From a virus: 36,303 nucleotides of DNA. Positions 22,112-27,865 of this stretch are shown piece by piece; positions within the stretch are counted from its first letter, which is position 1, and each line of letters opens with the position of its first letter. The stretch is from UHGV virus genome UHGV-1321070, one strand, 5' to 3'. The notes beneath the pieces were generated by a model that saw only the letters and a program-made list of their open reading frames with translations, was not told the DNA's origin and searched no databases. Both the position numbers and the translations under genes were made by a program.

Positions 22112-22362
22112 TGAAAGAATACCGCTATTCCGGCCCGGCCAGCGGCGTCACGCTGTCGGACGGAACCGAAATCCTGCTCTGGCCGGGGAAGACGGTTTCC
22201 CTGCCGGAGGAGCATGACTACGTGAAGGTACTGGTGGCGCTGAAGCATCTGACGCCGGTACCAGAAGATACTAAACCCGCCGTCACACCGGCTGTGCAGT
22301 CACCAAAGCGCAGAAGCAGCAGTGACAGCGAAGTGAAAACGGAGGACTCCCATGGCAGCTAA
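22108..22362 (+). CDS. Small protein preceding tail sheath (Mu gp38-like)
   Basis: 84 aa, coupled upstream of the sheath gene. Confidence 0.4.
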   Translation: MMKEYRYSGPASGVTLSDGTEILLWPGKTVSLPEEHDYVKVLVALKHLTPVPEDTKPAVTPAVQSPKRRSSSDSEVKTEDSHGS

Positions 22363-23779
22363 CTATCTGCATGGCGTCGAAACCATTGAGGTGGAAAACG
22401 GAGCCCGCCCGGTTAAAACGGTGAAATCTGCCGTTATTGGCCTGATTGGTACCGCCCCGATGGGGGATGTCAATACGCTGGTACAGTGCCTGTCTGAGAA
22501 AGACGCTGCGGCATTTGGCAGCCAGTTCACCGGCTTTACCATTCCGCAGGCGCTGGATGCGATTTATGACCATGGTGCAGGCACCGTTCTGGTCATTAAC
22601 GTACTCGATCCGTCTGTGCATAAAATCGCTGTGGTCAGTGAGAATGTGTCGTTCGACAAGGCGACAGGCAGAGCCCGGCTGGCTAATCCGGTGGTCGCGC
22701 AGCTGGTACTGAAACCGGACAGCGACGGTCAGCCTTATGTTGAAGGTCAGGACTACTCGCTTGATGCACAGACCGGGGTGATTACTAACCTGGGTAAAAG
22801 CATTGCTGCAGATGCAACGGTGAAGGCCAGCTATAACTATGCTGATCCGACCAAAGTCACCCCGGCTGATATCATCGGTACCGTTAACGCTGCAGGCAAC
22901 CGTACCGGCATGAAGCTGCTTAACGACAGTTTTAACCTGTTTGGCTACTTCGCCAAAATCCTGATTGCTCCGGTATTCTGCACCCAGAACAGCGTCTCGG
23001 TTGAGCTTATCGCCATGGCTGAGAAACTGGGAGCAGTAACCTATATTGATGCTCCGGTTGGTACCACTTTTGCGCAGGCTCTGGCGGGACGTGGCCCGGA
23101 AGGCACCATTAACTTTAATACCAGCTCTGACCGTGTCCGCCTGTGCTACCCGCATGTGAAGGTATATGACCCGGTGACGAACACGGAGCGTCTGGAGCCA
23201 CTGAGCCAGCGTGCGGCGGGCCTGCGTGCCAAAGTCGACCTGGACAAAGGGTACTGGTGGTCATCCTCCAATCAGGAAATTCTGGGGATCACCGGCGTGG
23301 AGCGCCAGCTGTCGGCAATGATTGACGATCCGCAGAGCGAGGTGAACCTGCTTAACGAACAGGGGATCACCACGGTATTCAGCAGTTACGGCAGCGGCCT
23401 TCGTCTGTGGGGTAACCGGACGGCAGCATGGCCAACGGTCACCCATATGCGTAACTTTGAGAACGTTCGCCGCACCGGTGATGTGATCAACGAGTCCATT
23501 CGTTACTTCAGCCAGCAGTACATCGACATGCCGATTACTCAGGCGCTGATTGATGCACTGACGGAGTCGGTCAACGCCTACGGTCGCAAAATGACTGGTG
23601 ATGGTGCGGTACTGGGCTTCCGTTGCTGGTTTGATCCGGCCCGCAATCCGGAGACGGAGCTGGCCGCCGGGCACCTGTTGCTGAGCTACAAATATACGCC
23701 ACCACCGCCGCTGGAGCGACTGACGTTTGAGACTGAAATCACCTCGGAATACCTGTTAACCCTGAAAGGGGGCAACTGA
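22352..23779 (+). CDS. Contractile tail sheath protein (Mu L-like)
   Basis: 475 aa, followed directly by tube gene; typical myovirus sheath size and order. Confidence 0.75.
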   Translation: MAANYLHGVETIEVENGARPVKTVKSAVIGLIGTAPMGDVNTLVQCLSEKDAAAFGSQFTGFTIPQALDAIYDHGAGTVLVINVLDPSVHKIAVVSENVSFDKATGRARLANPVVAQLVLKPDSDGQPYVEGQDYSLDAQTGVITNLGKSIAADATVKASYNYADPTKVTPADIIGTVNAAGNRTGMKLLNDSFNLFGYFAKILIAPVFCTQNSVSVELIAMAEKLGAVTYIDAPVGTTFAQALAGRGPEGTINFNTSSDRVRLCYPHVKVYDPVTNTERLEPLSQRAAGLRAKVDLDKGYWWSSSNQEILGITGVERQLSAMIDDPQSEVNLLNEQGITTVFSSYGSGLRLWGNRTAAWPTVTHMRNFENVRRTGDVINESIRYFSQQYIDMPITQALIDALTESVNAYGRKMTGDGAVLGFRCWFDPARNPETELAAGHLLLSYKYTPPPPLERLTFETEITSEYLLTLKGGN

Positions 23780-24300
23780 TGTCAAAGATTGAGATAAACC
23801 GAATCACGAATGCCAACATCTATCTGGATGGTACTAACCTGCTGGGACGGGCTGAGGAAGTTAAACTCCCCGATGTCTCCATGATTATGCAGGAGCACAA
23901 GGCACTGGGGATGGTGGGTAAGGTGGAACTCCCGGCTGGTTTTGACAAACTGGAAGGCGAAATCAAATGGAACAGCTTTTACCGCGATGCGATGTTGTCT
24001 GCCGCGAACCCGTACAAGTCGCTGGCGCTGCAGTGTCGCTCCAGCGTCCAGCGCTACAGCTCGCAGGGGCTGATCGACGAAATCCCGCTGGTCACCTTCC
24101 TGACAATTATGTTCAAGAAGAACCCGCTGGGGACGTTCAAACAGCACGAGAACGCCGAGTTCTCCAGTAGCTTCACCTGCACGTATATCAGACAGGTACT
24201 GGATGGTGAAGAGTTGCTGCAACTGGACTATCTGGCCAACATCTTCCGCGTCGGTGGCGTTGATCAACTGACTGACTATCGAATCAATATCGGGGGCTGA
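23779..24300 (+). CDS. Tail tube protein (Mu M-like)
   Basis: 173 aa immediately after the sheath. Confidence 0.7.
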   Translation: MSKIEINRITNANIYLDGTNLLGRAEEVKLPDVSMIMQEHKALGMVGKVELPAGFDKLEGEIKWNSFYRDAMLSAANPYKSLALQCRSSVQRYSSQGLIDEIPLVTFLTIMFKKNPLGTFKQHENAEFSSSFTCTYIRQVLDGEELLQLDYLANIFRVGGVDQLTDYRINIGG

Positions 24301-24302
24301 CG

Positions 24303-24584
24303 GTGAGTGTTGAACTGACTGACAAAGGAGGGCGATGTGCGTCACTGGGCATGTCAAATGGTACGTGGTTTACCCTCCTTGATATTCCGGGGGTGGAAAC
24401 CCTTTTTAATACCCGTAAAACCAATGACCCGATTGACTGCACACGTTCAAAGGCCCGCAAACTGGCGGATTTGATTGAAGCATGGGAGCCTCCCGACCAC
24501 TGGTTCTCCGGCACCGGCAAATCTGAGGGAAAGACGCTTCTCATCGCTTTCCTGCGTAACTGCAAGGGGTTTCGCACTTGCTGA
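24303..24584 (+). CDS. Hypothetical protein (93 aa, GTG start)
   Basis: ORF between tube and chaperone genes; weak start context, coding status uncertain. Confidence 0.3.
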   Translation: MSVELTDKGGRCASLGMSNGTWFTLLDIPGVETLFNTRKTNDPIDCTRSKARKLADLIEAWEPPDHWFSGTGKSEGKTLLIAFLRNCKGFRTC

Positions 24585-24607
24585 CATCACAGGGGCTCTG
24601 GCCCCTT

Positions 24608-24629
24608 CTTCTTAATCTCCTTTAATATC
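24608..24629 (+). promoter_or_regulatory. Conserved late-promoter motif, copy 2 (upstream of tail chaperone / tape measure operon)
   Basis: CTTCTTAATCTCCTTTAATATC; CATACT -10-like hexamer 19 bp downstream (24649..24654). Confidence 0.55.
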
Positions 24630-24681
24630 CGTCACGCGCTTCTCCCGACATACTGCCCTGAACTTACACAGGAGCACAATC

Positions 24682-25017
24682 ATGTCACAGACCCCATCCG
24701 ATACTTTTAAATTGTCTTATCCCTTCACCACTGCTGCAGGCACCAGAATTGAGCAGGTTGAACTGAAACGCCTGACGGTAAAAGACCTGAAGCAGGTGCG
24801 CAAAATCAGCAAAAACCCGGCAGACTGGGACGAACCGCTGATTGCCCGCAGTACTGGTCTTCTCCCGGAAGATCTCGACAATATGGATCTGGCTGATTAC
24901 CTGCAGTTACAGAAACGATTTCAGCTCATCACGGGGATGGGTGAGAGCAACCAGGGCGCTGACGCAGGCGCAGGGGCTGCTGGCGAGATGGTTCCGGTTT
25001 CAGCCGGGGGAGATTGA
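24682..25017 (+). CDS. Tail assembly chaperone (upstream frame)
   Basis: 111 aa acidic protein between tube and tape measure; overlapped by a +1-frame ORF (24842..25099). Confidence 0.55.
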   Translation: MSQTPSDTFKLSYPFTTAAGTRIEQVELKRLTVKDLKQVRKISKNPADWDEPLIARSTGLLPEDLDNMDLADYLQLQKRFQLITGMGESNQGADAGAGAAGEMVPVSAGGD

Positions 25018-25099
25018 TGCCCTCGATACTGACGATCTGGAGATGTGGCTGGAGCAGGCTGAAGAGCAAATCAAAAGCGAGTACGGCGACAAATCATAG
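24842..25099 (+). other. +1-frame ORF overlapping the chaperone 3' end (candidate frameshift extension)
   Basis: The +1 frame stays open to 25099 while the 0 frame ends at 25017; a run of five G (GCC GGG GGA) sits just before the 0-frame stop. Confidence 0.35.
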
Positions 25100-25104
25100 T
25101 ACAG

Positions 25105-25125
25105 ACAGCCGCCAGTAGCGGCTGT
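25105..25125 (+). other. Stem-loop ACAGCCGC-cagta-GCGGCTGT upstream of the tape-measure gene
   Basis: 8-bp perfect stem with 5-nt loop in the 75-bp gap before 25175; no clear U-tract. Confidence 0.35.
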
Positions 25126-25174
25126 TCTGCGTTATCCCCTCACGTCTTTTCACCTTCCCCGGAGGTTAACCACT

Positions 25175-27865
25175 ATGTCGGGACAGTTTTCAGTCGGCGT
25201 TGTTATCGGCGGGATGATTGGCAGCACATTCCGTTCTGCAATGAGCGGTACCCGCCGTGCGCTTGATTCCCTGAGCGATACCTCACGCCGCCTGCAGGAA
25301 CGTCAGAACGCTTTAACCCGTGCAACAGAACGTTATGGTCAACTGGGTTCTTCCCGGATGCAGCATCTCAACAGCGAGCTGCTGCGGGTAAGCCGCACCA
25401 TGGAGCAAATTGAGCGCCAGCAGCGCCGTCTGTCAGCGGCATCCGCTACCAGTGATGCGCTGAAAGCTAACCGCATGGCGCTGTATGGTCAGGGGATTGA
25501 AGCGTATAGCATGGCACAGACTGTTTATCATACGGTTTCCCCTGCCGTTCAGCAGTCCATGTCTTTTCAGGACAAAATGATTGATATGTCGATCACCGCA
25601 AAATATGACAATAAAACGCGGGATGCACTTGCCGGACAGATAAAAGGCTGGGCGCTTAAATACAATCAGTATCAGGATGAGCTGCAGGAGGCGGTGGGTT
25701 CACTCATCAGCGACAATATTGATAATGTGTCAGATATCGGTTTTCTGATGCCGGATATTGCCCGCGCGGCAACGGCAACACGCACGTCTGCTCAGGACTG
25801 GGCAAAAGTGGCCGCAGTCTGGCAAAACTCCCTGAAAGGTGCGGCCAGAGATTTTGGTGCCGTTCAGAATATTATGGCTTATGCCGGTGACCAGGGGTCA
25901 TTTGAAATCCCGGATCAGGTCAAGTGGATGCAGTCCCTGGCCCCAATGATGGCGGGTATTGCCAGTGGAAAAGAGGCTGTTGCTGAAATCGGGGCCAGTC
26001 TCCAGATAGCAAAAATCGGTGCAGGTTCCACCGACGAGGCAGCCAATAATTTTAAAAACTTTCTTACCAAAATTTTTGCCCGCGATACTCAGAAACAGTT
26101 TGCTGATCTGGGTATTGATTTGCAGGGATCTATTGCGAGTTATAAGGCTGCGGGGATCTCTCCGATTGAAGGGATGTTGAGTGTTATAGAACGTTACCTC
26201 AATGCCAAAAGCCCCGAAGCGCTGGCCGACTTCAAATCCGCCATGAAAATAAAGAATGATACGGCAAGAGATGAGGCACTTCAGGCTCTGGCGAAAAACT
26301 TTGGTCTGGGTGATATGTTCGCGGATATGCAGGTCATGGCATTTATCCGCCCGATGCTGGCCAACATGGACAGATATCGCGAGATCCGCGCCGGTGCTCT
26401 CAGGGCTGCGGATAACGATTTGCTTGCCAGTGCTTATGATCAGCGGCTGAAATCTCCCCTTGAAGCCACTAAAGCACTTATGGTCAGCAGTCACGATCTG
26501 GCAATTACGCTGGGCGATCAATTAGCTCCATCTTTTATTTCTCTGACTCAGGACTTGCTCCCACTCATTCAGGGGACAAAACACTGGGTAGCGACTCACC
26601 CGCAATTTGTCAGTGGGGCTTTTAAGCTCATCAGTGCGCTCCTTGCGATTAAGATAGCGACTATTGGTCTCAAACTGGGGCTGAATCTCCTTATTTCCCC
26701 CTTTGTAAGTGTCTGGAAAAATGCTGTTTTACTTCGGGCCAACTGGCTTCGTCTGTCGCTCGCACTGGGGCAAGGCGGTAAGCTCCGCTGGCTGGTGACC
26801 GGATTTAGCGCCGTCGCCAGAGGAGCCAGAACACTGAGTGGCGTGCTCTCCGGGGGGCTGGTTCGCGGAATTATGCTCGCCGGACGTGCTGTTCTCTGGA
26901 TTGGACGTGCGCTGATGATGAATCCCATCGGTCTCGTTATCACCGCTGTCGCGGCAGCAGCTTACCTTATCTACCGCAACTGGGGGGCAGTCAGTGGCTG
27001 GTTTAAACAGCGCTGGGCTGACATTCAGGAAGCCTTTAACGGCGGCATTGTGGGAATTGGTAAGTTGCTGATTAACTGGTCGCCGGCAGGCCTGCTCTAT
27101 AAAGCCTTTGCGGCTGCGCTGAAATATTTCGGCGTTGCTCTGCCGGCAAAGTTCACCGACTTCGGTGGTCATCTTATCGACGGTCTGATTAACGGTATCA
27201 AAAACAAATGGGAGTCGCTCAAATCCAGTGTAACCGGAATGGGTGACAGCATCAGTGGCTGGTTCAGCGAAAAGCTGGGCATTCATTCGCCGAGCCGCGT
27301 GTTTATGGGCTTTGGTGACAATATCGCGCAGGGGGCCGCCATTGGCCTGCAGCGGACCACTCCGCTTGCAGCTCTGGCCGGGCAGCGAATGGCCAGTGAA
27401 CTGCTCCCCAAAATGCCCGTGAGCATTCAGGGGCCAGAAATACGGGATAACACTTCAGGTGTTCGCTTCAGTATGCCGTTGCCCGATATCAATGGGTTTA
27501 TGTCGTCTGCTAAAAATGCGATCGGAGCCGTAATCAATAGTTTGTCTTCCATGCCCGCTATTCCGCTCTCCACCCGGGCATCGATTTTACCAGGGCAACG
27601 TCTGGCAAATGAGATGACACCGGATGTTCCCCGTATCCCCTCGCCTGAAATCCTGGCTGCCGGATATTCAGGCCGTGGTGCAGCTGCAACCGGCGGTGGA
27701 ACGTCTGGTGGTATCCAGGTCAGCTTTAATCCTCAGTTTTTCCTCAATGGCAGGGAAACCACAGCGCCTGCCGGACTGACTGGCGCCCTGAATATGAGCC
27801 TGCATGAGCTGGAAAAAATGCTGGAGCGTCTGCTGGCTCAGAAACAACGTAAGGAGTACCGCTGA
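25175..27865 (+). CDS. Tail tape measure protein
   Basis: 896 aa, helical N-terminal half and hydrophobic central segments, located after the tail chaperone. Confidence 0.8.
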   Translation: MSGQFSVGVVIGGMIGSTFRSAMSGTRRALDSLSDTSRRLQERQNALTRATERYGQLGSSRMQHLNSELLRVSRTMEQIERQQRRLSAASATSDALKANRMALYGQGIEAYSMAQTVYHTVSPAVQQSMSFQDKMIDMSITAKYDNKTRDALAGQIKGWALKYNQYQDELQEAVGSLISDNIDNVSDIGFLMPDIARAATATRTSAQDWAKVAAVWQNSLKGAARDFGAVQNIMAYAGDQGSFEIPDQVKWMQSLAPMMAGIASGKEAVAEIGASLQIAKIGAGSTDEAANNFKNFLTKIFARDTQKQFADLGIDLQGSIASYKAAGISPIEGMLSVIERYLNAKSPEALADFKSAMKIKNDTARDEALQALAKNFGLGDMFADMQVMAFIRPMLANMDRYREIRAGALRAADNDLLASAYDQRLKSPLEATKALMVSSHDLAITLGDQLAPSFISLTQDLLPLIQGTKHWVATHPQFVSGAFKLISALLAIKIATIGLKLGLNLLISPFVSVWKNAVLLRANWLRLSLALGQGGKLRWLVTGFSAVARGARTLSGVLSGGLVRGIMLAGRAVLWIGRALMMNPIGLVITAVAAAAYLIYRNWGAVSGWFKQRWADIQEAFNGGIVGIGKLLINWSPAGLLYKAFAAALKYFGVALPAKFTDFGGHLIDGLINGIKNKWESLKSSVTGMGDSISGWFSEKLGIHSPSRVFMGFGDNIAQGAAIGLQRTTPLAALAGQRMASELLPKMPVSIQGPEIRDNTSGVRFSMPLPDINGFMSSAKNAIGAVINSLSSMPAIPLSTRASILPGQRLANEMTPDVPRIPSPEILAAGYSGRGAAATGGGTSGGIQVSFNPQFFLNGRETTAPAGLTGALNMSLHELEKMLERLLAQKQRKEYR

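Follow-up and report, generated by a model that had tools for sequence, protein, structure and literature searches.

The 36,303-nucleotide (nt) viral genome UHGV-1321070, called the window below, carries two overlapping open reading frames (ORFs) between its tail tube and tape-measure genes, the second in the +1 register relative to the first. We asked which proteins this locus makes and, if ribosomes pass from one frame into the other, where they do so. The two-product tail assembly chaperone is among the most conserved recoding events of tailed phages; the known chaperone shifts are overwhelmingly of the −1 type, and Mu is the classic −2 exception. Judging from the comparisons below, we consider it very likely that a +1 frameshift product exists, and we have good confidence that, given such a product, its shift site would be the tetranucleotide UUU_C at 24919-24922. 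As an explanation of the locus as a whole, we are reasonably confident of a P2-type E/E+E' chaperone pair that would be made by a +1 shift at UUU_C. The computed evidence consists of the layout and conservation of the frames, the handover of selection from frame 0 to the +1 frame, the invariance of UUU_C, and collinearity with the E+E' product of P2.

Two overlapping reading frames at the tail chaperone locus

The upstream (0-frame) ORF belongs to the PF10109 'E/41/14' family of tail assembly chaperones (residues 8-81, E=3.5e-22, 78.7 bits against a cut-off of 25), and it also matches phrog_166, 'tail protein', with E=3e-33. Residues 1-80 of its product constitute the conserved PF10109 domain, and residues 81-111 form an unconstrained Gly/Ala-rich tail. 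The +1 frame is open from 24842, following a TGA at 24839-24841, to the TAG at 25097-25099, and it shares 176 nt with the 0-frame ORF. An earlier reading of the window's letters (the original prediction) had described a 0-frame ORF running to 25017 and a +1 ORF running to 25099 with an overlap of about 175 nt, had placed them between the tube and tape-measure genes, and had proposed a two-product tail chaperone. These points hold: the tube gene (PF04985) lies on the 5' side and the tape-measure gene (PF10145) on the 3' side, with one small ORF (24303-24584) intervening after the tube gene, the PF10109 match falls at the expected position, and a programmed frameshift is the best explanation of the arrangement.

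The part of the +1 frame that lies beyond the proposed site, hereafter the extension, matches phrog_8286 (E=3e-34). A 52-residue piece of it is entered in RefSeq as WP_001202894.1, 'GpE family phage tail protein', from a genome in which the upstream gene is deleted. An NCBIfam scan matched neither the chaperone nor the extension piece, and a search of PDB sequences with a profile of the fused product returned nothing meaningful. The −1 frame is without a conserved domain, being closed or unconserved, and no canonical −1 heptamer X_XXY_YYZ leading into it was found.

Conservation of the +1 arrangement among relatives

Relatives of the locus were gathered by protein search, from bacterial contigs at one genome per species, from IMG/VR viral contigs and from annotated phages; a second scan of the viral contigs with an alignment of E' yielded the same close relatives only. 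Our count of frames covers the 292 loci at which both the chaperone and the E'-like domain were located by hidden Markov models. The E'-like domain lies in the +1 frame at 288 of these, which agrees with the original prediction that the downstream domain sits in the +1 (or −2) and not the −1 frame. The loci outside this pattern are three or four in-frame cases, most likely assembly errors or mutants, and one Pasteurella phage with the domain in the −1 frame, as in P2. Both the arrangement and the +1-frame peptide ...AQGLLARWFRFQP(G/S)E(I/L)D...W...QIK.E persist to about 31% chaperone identity: the arrangement is found in BcepMu and in Pseudomonas, Ralstonia and Crenobacter relatives, and the peptide is present in the annotated gp42 of BcepMu. 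Because the +1 relation is so widely kept and the +1 frame shows a coding-type substitution pattern, the overlap is above what chance would give.

Certain loci merit individual description. In the Pasteurella phage AFS-2018a (L133, MH238466.1), the E'-like domain (VAWWFGWNVSEIEQ...) stands in the −1 frame after ...AUG CAA AAA GGG AAA UAA, and therefore both shift directions coexist among PF10109 relatives. An 8.2-kb contig of coverage ~7 assigned to 'Arthrobacter sp. GMC3' (L005, NZ_PJIO01000028.1) has a chaperone locus with 100% amino-acid identity to the Escherichia coli prophage; it is almost certainly E. coli contamination of an actinobacterial assembly, and the same 8,241-bp contig recurs in IMG/VR as L051. 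The 35-kb Klebsiella phage KP12 clone KP12_2 (L004, OM835952.1), listed in Vequintavirinae, contains a BcepMu-like tail module ~87% identical to the window, and this sequence is probably a co-assembled prophage and not part of KP12.

Locating the proposed shift

To follow selection along the overlap we used the sliding ratio of nonsynonymous to synonymous polymorphism (pN/pS) in 87 distinct gap-free sequences. Frame 0 is constrained (pN/pS 0.1-0.4) up to alignment column 36 and, on the codon scale, up to codon 80; in columns 37-60 the two frames are equal at ~0.55; and from about column 64 the +1 frame is constrained, with values of 0.03-0.5 across the extension. The +1 frame reaches its minimum, 0.03-0.10, at LLARWFRFQP, in the AQGLLARWFRFQP region upstream of a GGGGG run, and there frame 0 looks neutral, with ratios above 1 and, against the most constrained +1 codons, above 4. 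From about codon 89 on, frame-0 pN/pS is at least 1. Both G-runs of the window, at 24973-24976 and 25005-25009, fall within this stretch of +1 selection.

The positions at which a shift could occur were delimited by intersecting, at each locus, the stretch in which the +1 frame is open with the stretch in which the 0 frame has not yet terminated. Among the relatives, the distance from the start of the open +1 frame to the downstream UUU codon of F80 ranges from 8 nt to more than 140 nt, and the 0 frame stops between +21 and +108 nt past that codon; many relatives of ~85% identity end the 0 frame at ...GEVV and a stop, 15 nt before the G-run, and others end it 21-45 nt after F80. Intersected over all loci, the permissible interval extends from 8 nt upstream to 21 nt downstream of the F80 UUU, and the tightest single loci permit 29 nt, as in AGC GAC TCC TTT CGC AGC ATG GTG GAC AAC TGA.

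Two E. coli prophages in IMG/VR (L068, UViG_2654587728_000014; L069, UViG_2585427766_000008) carry a C-to-T change at the equivalent of position 24949. The change converts 0-frame CAG to TAG 27 nt after Q81, whereas the +1 codon it touches keeps its meaning (ACC to ACU). These prophages are natural variants with a short product that lacks the 0-frame tail.

A single motif is shared by all permissible intervals. An in-frame TTT_C occurs exactly once per interval in 161/161 distinct relatives, and in the window it reads CGA_UUU_CAG (24916-24924); no motif besides UUU_C was common to all intervals. For comparison, the fraction of Phe codons that are TTT in neighbouring genes is 0.53 where the locus is low in GC and 0.25 where it is high in GC. 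The flanks of the motif differ between branches. In the BcepMu branch, all loci (L217-L295 among them) read NNN_UUU_CG(C/G/U), BcepMu itself having UCC_UUU_CGC. The enterobacterial branch, to which the window belongs, reads CG(A/G)_UUU_C(A/U/G)N; its A-site codon is CAG in the window and CAG, CAA, CAU, CGC or CUG in the enterobacterial relatives, and the Arg codon before UUU is mostly CGA, occasionally CGG, and never CGU or CGC. This codon bias is not explained by the +1 frame ahead of the shift, so CGA may belong to the signal, and we speculate that this rare codon helps from the E site.

The position of UUU_C also agrees with that of the P2 site. We joined 17 products at UUU_C and compared their profile by hhalign with P2 gpE+E'; the two align end to end across the junction over 122 columns (prob 94%, E=1.4e-7). 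In this alignment F80 stands opposite F86 of P2, the first codon read after the experimentally verified −1 shift of P2 at GGU_UUU_UUG.

Proposed mechanism

Tailed phages use −1, −2 or +1 shifts at the tail chaperone gene (PMC5009743), and UUU_C has precedents as a +1 site. It is the site of the influenza A PA-X frameshift (UCC_UUU_CGU), as shown by protein sequencing, and the authors of that work noted that a single tRNA-Phe pairs better with UUC and predicted a wider UUU_C class (PMC3498833). The +1 site proposed for amalgaviruses is UUU_CGN (PMC5052127), and a 2025 preprint on an E. coli cell-free system names TTT_C as one of the tetramers that recur in the most efficient +1 sites (bioRxiv 10.1101/2025.10.02.679949).

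In the window, most ribosomes would translate 24682-25017 and produce the 111-residue short chaperone. A minority would slip by +1 with the F80 UUU (24919-24921) in the P site, where the single tRNA-Phe (anticodon GAA) would re-pair from UUU to UUC (24920-24922), its better partner; out-of-frame A-site binding at UUC would be an equivalent route to the same protein. Decoding would then continue from AGC at 24923 to the stop at 25097-25099, giving a long form of 138 amino acids (80 + 58). At CGA_UUU_C this +1 re-pairing is the only event that makes sense; tRNA-Phe has no −2 partner there, and this pairing argument is the sole ground for ruling out a −2 shift. The efficiency of the shift is probably low, perhaps ~1-5%, because no stimulator is visible; a site of this kind would fit the low-efficiency PA-X site, the low ratio of lambda GT and the ~2% of Mu. 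If the pair works as lambda G/GT and P2 E/E+E' do, the N-domain common to both products would coat the tape-measure protein and the extension would recruit the tube protein.

Transcriptional slippage was considered and rejected, the longest homopolymers (T3 and G5) being too short.

Alternative explanations

We weighed several other accounts of the overlap. The original prediction had placed the shift at the GGGGG run just before the 0-frame stop, which is indeed present at 25005-25009, and had estimated an extension of about 28 amino acids. On this account tRNA-Gly would slip from GGG to GGG (+1) or, in the manner of Mu, from GGA to GGG (−2), adding only ~29 amino acids (GEIDALD...GDKS) to a near full-length 0-frame protein; a shift at UUU_C instead gives 58 after the first 80 residues. 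The peptide that had been quoted does lie in the +1 frame, but it is 31 residues long as written. The run was a reasonable lead: it allows perfect re-pairing, it adjoins the 0-frame stop as is typical, and the proven −2 site of Mu, CGG_GGG_CGA, is also a G-run. The expected conservation was found for the overlap and not for the run, as only 20/161 distinct relatives have a G5 no more than 15 nt from the stop of the 0 frame and 141/161 lack one there. In the ~85%-identical relatives that end in GEVV the run lies beyond the 0-frame stop, and Brenneria, Photorhabdus and Xenorhabdus relatives read QPSE and have no G-run. A shift there would also leave untranslated the +1 codons before the run (LLARWFRFQ), which are the most constrained of the region and encode the opening half of the GpE-like domain aligned with P2 E', and would put the unconstrained Gly/Ala-rich tail in their place. 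The A-site codon after the run is GAU, which is not slow, so that the combination of G-run and rare codon seen in Mu is lacking. We regard a shift on this run as very unlikely.

One-base changes in the G-run yield in-frame 138-residue proteins (P0004, from 12 contigs; L015; L130), which could be read in favour of slippage there; because assemblies carry such changes, polymerases or sequencers, at the least, tend to err on this run. In-frame fusions of chaperone and E' were seen more broadly, at L015 (Erwinia tracheiphila), L130 (IMG/VR), L038 (Apirhabdus apintestini) and L250 (a metagenome) and in proteins P0004, P0025 and P0059. Their junctions vary, falling at the G-run, upstream of UUU or elsewhere, and the source is in most cases a long-read or noisy assembly. 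The fused proteins, including the 138-residue database entries, are probably the result of homopolymer errors, the alternative being true constitutive-fusion mutants; the 138-residue entries were counted as sequencing errors and not used as evidence for the site.

A +1 (or −2) shift elsewhere in the overlap, for instance at GGG_G 24973-24976, or diffuse low-level slippage at several sites, is another candidate; any +1 shift within the overlap yields a product of 138 amino acids, so that the candidate +1 sites do not differ in product size. This GGGG permits perfect +1 re-pairing and is well conserved among enterobacterial relatives, the Pfam GpE match starts just past it, and selection statistics by themselves do not place the switch more finely than columns 37-64. 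The run nevertheless lies well within the zone where the +1 frame is selected, and its conservation is accounted for by the +1 codons, which encode Q-G-L. It is situated beyond the 0-frame stop in Symbiopectobacterium (+45), Crenobacter (+21), L068/L069 and most loci of the BcepMu clade, and UUU_C alone is common to all permissible intervals. We consider a shift at such other positions very unlikely.

The +1 ORF might alternatively be translated by itself, with no frameshift, as a small 'GpE family' protein, e.g. from GTG 24941 (52 amino acids). Both the RefSeq entry for this 52-residue protein, from a genome with the upstream gene deleted, and the separate PHROGs family would agree with this, and a GGGGA stands 4-8 nt before the GTG. 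That GTG is unconserved, close relatives having GCA; in 35/159 distinct loci the +1 ORF offers none of the starts ATG, GTG and TTG ahead of the core domain; and at the tightest loci the +1 frame opens just 8 nt before UUU and offers no start codon. The near-invariant +1-frame Trp (W86) lies upstream of the sole candidate start in the window, and the homologous E' segment of P2 is produced only as a fusion. Separate translation is very unlikely in our view. A start at TTG 24842 was also tried as a candidate and is not conserved.

Finally, the overlap could be a decaying relic in a prophage lineage that does not need or does not make the long form. Many copies sit in prophages whose activity is unknown, and a few loci have in-frame fusions or nonsense changes. 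Against this, the +1 frame is under strong purifying selection over 16 divergent clusters, the arrangement is present in the isolated phages PhiKM and BcepMu, and the prophage occurs widely at high identity (see below); decay is very unlikely and the least probable of these accounts.

The +1 shift at UUU_C has its own points of weakness. Both products and their junction are predicted from sequence comparison. Selection by itself confines the switch only to ~25 nt, because pN/pS is equal in the two frames over columns 37-60, and the intersection argument presumes one site across all lineages. The 161 distinct sequences fall into 16 clusters at 70% and 51 at 90% amino-acid identity and are phylogenetically related, so they are kin and not independent samples. 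F80 is invariant in the chaperone domain, and the conservation of UUU is therefore partly a protein constraint; for the same reason, only the choice of UUU over UUC and the following C count as independent evidence. The extension matches PF06528, Phage_P2_GpE, over residues 100-132 of the fused product with E=0.0016 and at 14.7-18.3 bits, and even the higher score is below the gathering cut-off of 23. As to stimulators, the fold of 24900-25020 is not significant (z=−1.56), there is no Shine-Dalgarno-like element in the upstream sequence UUACAGAAACGA, no conserved non-coding signal was seen in the aligned contexts of the site, and CAG, which fills the A site, is no rare codon in E. coli.

Comparison with known systems

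The system is of a known type, as tailed phages widely conserve a programmed frameshift in the chaperone gene; the predicted slip site would be a variant. In the papers searched we found no description of UUU_C as a chaperone shift site in BcepMu-like phages.

P2 offers the closest parallel. It shares the gene order (sheath FI, tube FII, E, E', T, U, D), a PF10109 chaperone, a long product of similar length (142 amino acids in P2, 138 here) and a junction at the homologous Phe UUU codon. The differences lie in the shift itself, which would be +1 at a tetranucleotide, UUU_C, whereas P2 shifts by −1 at U_UUU_UUG, a tandem-slippage heptamer; in the 0 frame, which runs 31 codons past the site here and 6 in P2; and in an identity of only ~22%.

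Mu gp41 (gpGT-like) is likewise a myovirus chaperone encoded between tube and tape-measure genes with its extension in the +1 register, and it matches PF10109 with E=2.5e-5, placing it as a distant member of the same superfamily. Mu shifts by −2 with ~2% efficiency near the end of the gene, at CGG_GGG_CGA with the rare CGA in the A site (the site as read from the Mu sequence). The Mu site is thus a G-run, whereas the conserved site here is UUU_C, at which −2 re-pairing is impossible, and the Mu extension is not GpE-like.

With PA-X and the amalgaviruses the window has in common a proposed P-site slip of tRNA-Phe from UUU to UUC and the absence of an evident RNA stimulator, and the BcepMu clade has UUU_CGN exactly, BcepMu itself reading UCC_UUU_CGC where PA-X reads UCC_UUU_CGU. 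Those systems operate on eukaryotic ribosomes in RNA viruses, however, and the A site of the window holds CAG and not CGN, its conserved flank being the preceding CGA. Lambda G/GT is similar in that a single start serves a pair of products made at a fixed ratio, and in its place between the major tail and tape-measure genes; it differs in belonging to a siphovirus, in shifting by −1 on G_GGA_AAG, and in having no detectable sequence similarity. The window does not resemble the prfB type of +1 frameshift, given its CAG in the A site and the lack of a Shine-Dalgarno-like upstream element.

The same locus is present in BcepMu, the type phage of the genus (L131, NC_005882.1 24602-25363), whose annotators already suspected ribosomal slippage. 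Their record places a lambda G/T-like slippage between gp42 and gp43, with gp42 started independently. Our comparison indicates that the true pair would be gp41, the PF10109 chaperone, and gp42, the +1 E'-like ORF, joined at UCC_UUU_CGC; the gp43 ORF has no recognisable domain.

Gene order and host prophage

The window is an E. coli prophage of the BcepMu-like type (Bcepmuvirus) with a P2-type contractile tail module. The region 24300-25200 shares 99% identity with Escherichia phage PhiKM, an isolated phage of the genus Bcepmuvirus, and from this identity the module is able to build virions. The prophage is found in 641/5426 complete E. coli genomes, mostly at >=99% identity. Its tail genes run in the order sheath, tube, chaperone, tape measure, gpU, gpX and gpD (Table 1).

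Table 1. Features of the chaperone locus and its surroundings in the window.
Feature	Position	Strand	Basis or remark
Sheath gene	22352-23779		Pfam
Tail tube gene (P2 FII-like)	23779-24300	+	PF04985 E=2e-53; 5' neighbour fixing the chaperone position
93-residue ORF between tube and chaperone genes	24303-24584		Weak DUF7739 match
Shine-Dalgarno-like AGGAG of the chaperone gene	24670-24674	+	7 nt before ATG 24682; sequence reading
0-frame chaperone ORF, gpE-like short product, 111 amino acids	24682-25017	+	ATG 24682, TGA 25015-25017
5' part of the open +1 frame, probably untranslated	24842-24922	+	+1 pN/pS ~1 or above before column 36
Predicted +1 shift site CGA_UUU_C (R79, F80, first base of Q81)	24916-24922	+	Conservation and P2 alignment
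Predicted +1-frame E'-like extension, 58 amino acids (SSSRGWVRATRALTQAQGLLARWFRFQPGEIDALDTDDLEMWLEQAEEQIKSEYGDKS; SSSRGW...GDKS)	24923-25099	+	Includes stop TAG 25097-25099
GGGG run (0-frame GGG_G), rejected +1 candidate	24973-24976	+	Columns 91-94
GGGGG run, not a conserved shift site	25005-25009	+	+1 codons CCG GGG GAG (P-G-E of conserved QPGEID); columns 124-128
Tape measure protein gene, 3' neighbour	25175-27865	+	PF10145 E=1e-20; tape measure in PhiKM and RefSeq E. coli annotation
gpU, gpX and gpD homologues	3' of tape measure		Pfam

The ORF between the tube and chaperone genes matches DUF7739 below the cut-off (E=2e-5) and phrog_1239, a family of unknown function, with E=3e-48. It is kept in PhiKM, KP12 and E. 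coli prophages, and P2 is empty at the same spot. Between this ORF and the chaperone gene, within the tail operon, there is a terminator-like hairpin at 24591-24606 (AGGGGCUCUGGCCCCU then UCUUCUUAAU). A GC-rich hairpin follows directly after the E' stop at 25105-25125 (ACAGCCGC-CAGTA-GCGGCUGU, then UCUGCGUU), 50 nt before the tape-measure start. Its position is kept in most enterobacterial relatives with differing stems (e.g. GCAGCCGG..., ACAGUAGCC...GGCUGCUGU), and its weak U-tract caused a simple terminator scan to miss it. The hairpin could serve to set the ratio of chaperone to tape measure, either as a partial terminator or by acting on mRNA stability.

Implications for annotation and for +1 recoding

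Current databases describe the locus in parts. The 14 RefSeq E. coli records listed with an intact locus annotate the short chaperone alone, and in PHROGs the extension stands apart, as a family with no assigned function. The BcepMu record places the slippage one gene too far downstream. All three would be put right by annotating a join at ...CGA UUU|C....

More broadly, and only tentatively, we suggest that UUU_C may be a minimal, stimulator-free +1 signal on bacterial ribosomes and the programmed site of the BcepMu-like/P2-tail chaperone family, a family represented here by over 160 distinct sequences, among them those of Enterobacterales, Burkholderia, Pseudomonas and Ralstonia. If true, the site would have arisen at the Phe codon where P2 shifts by −1, which implies that the direction of frameshifting flipped in evolution at one homologous codon. 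In the enterobacterial branch CGA, a rare codon read by I:A wobble, would act from the E site as the modulator, taking the part that the CGN codon in the A site has in the other branch. A phage system would then be linked to the mechanism of influenza PA-X and the amalgaviruses, and E. coli would provide a genetically tractable model for the poorly understood process of stimulator-free +1 slippage.

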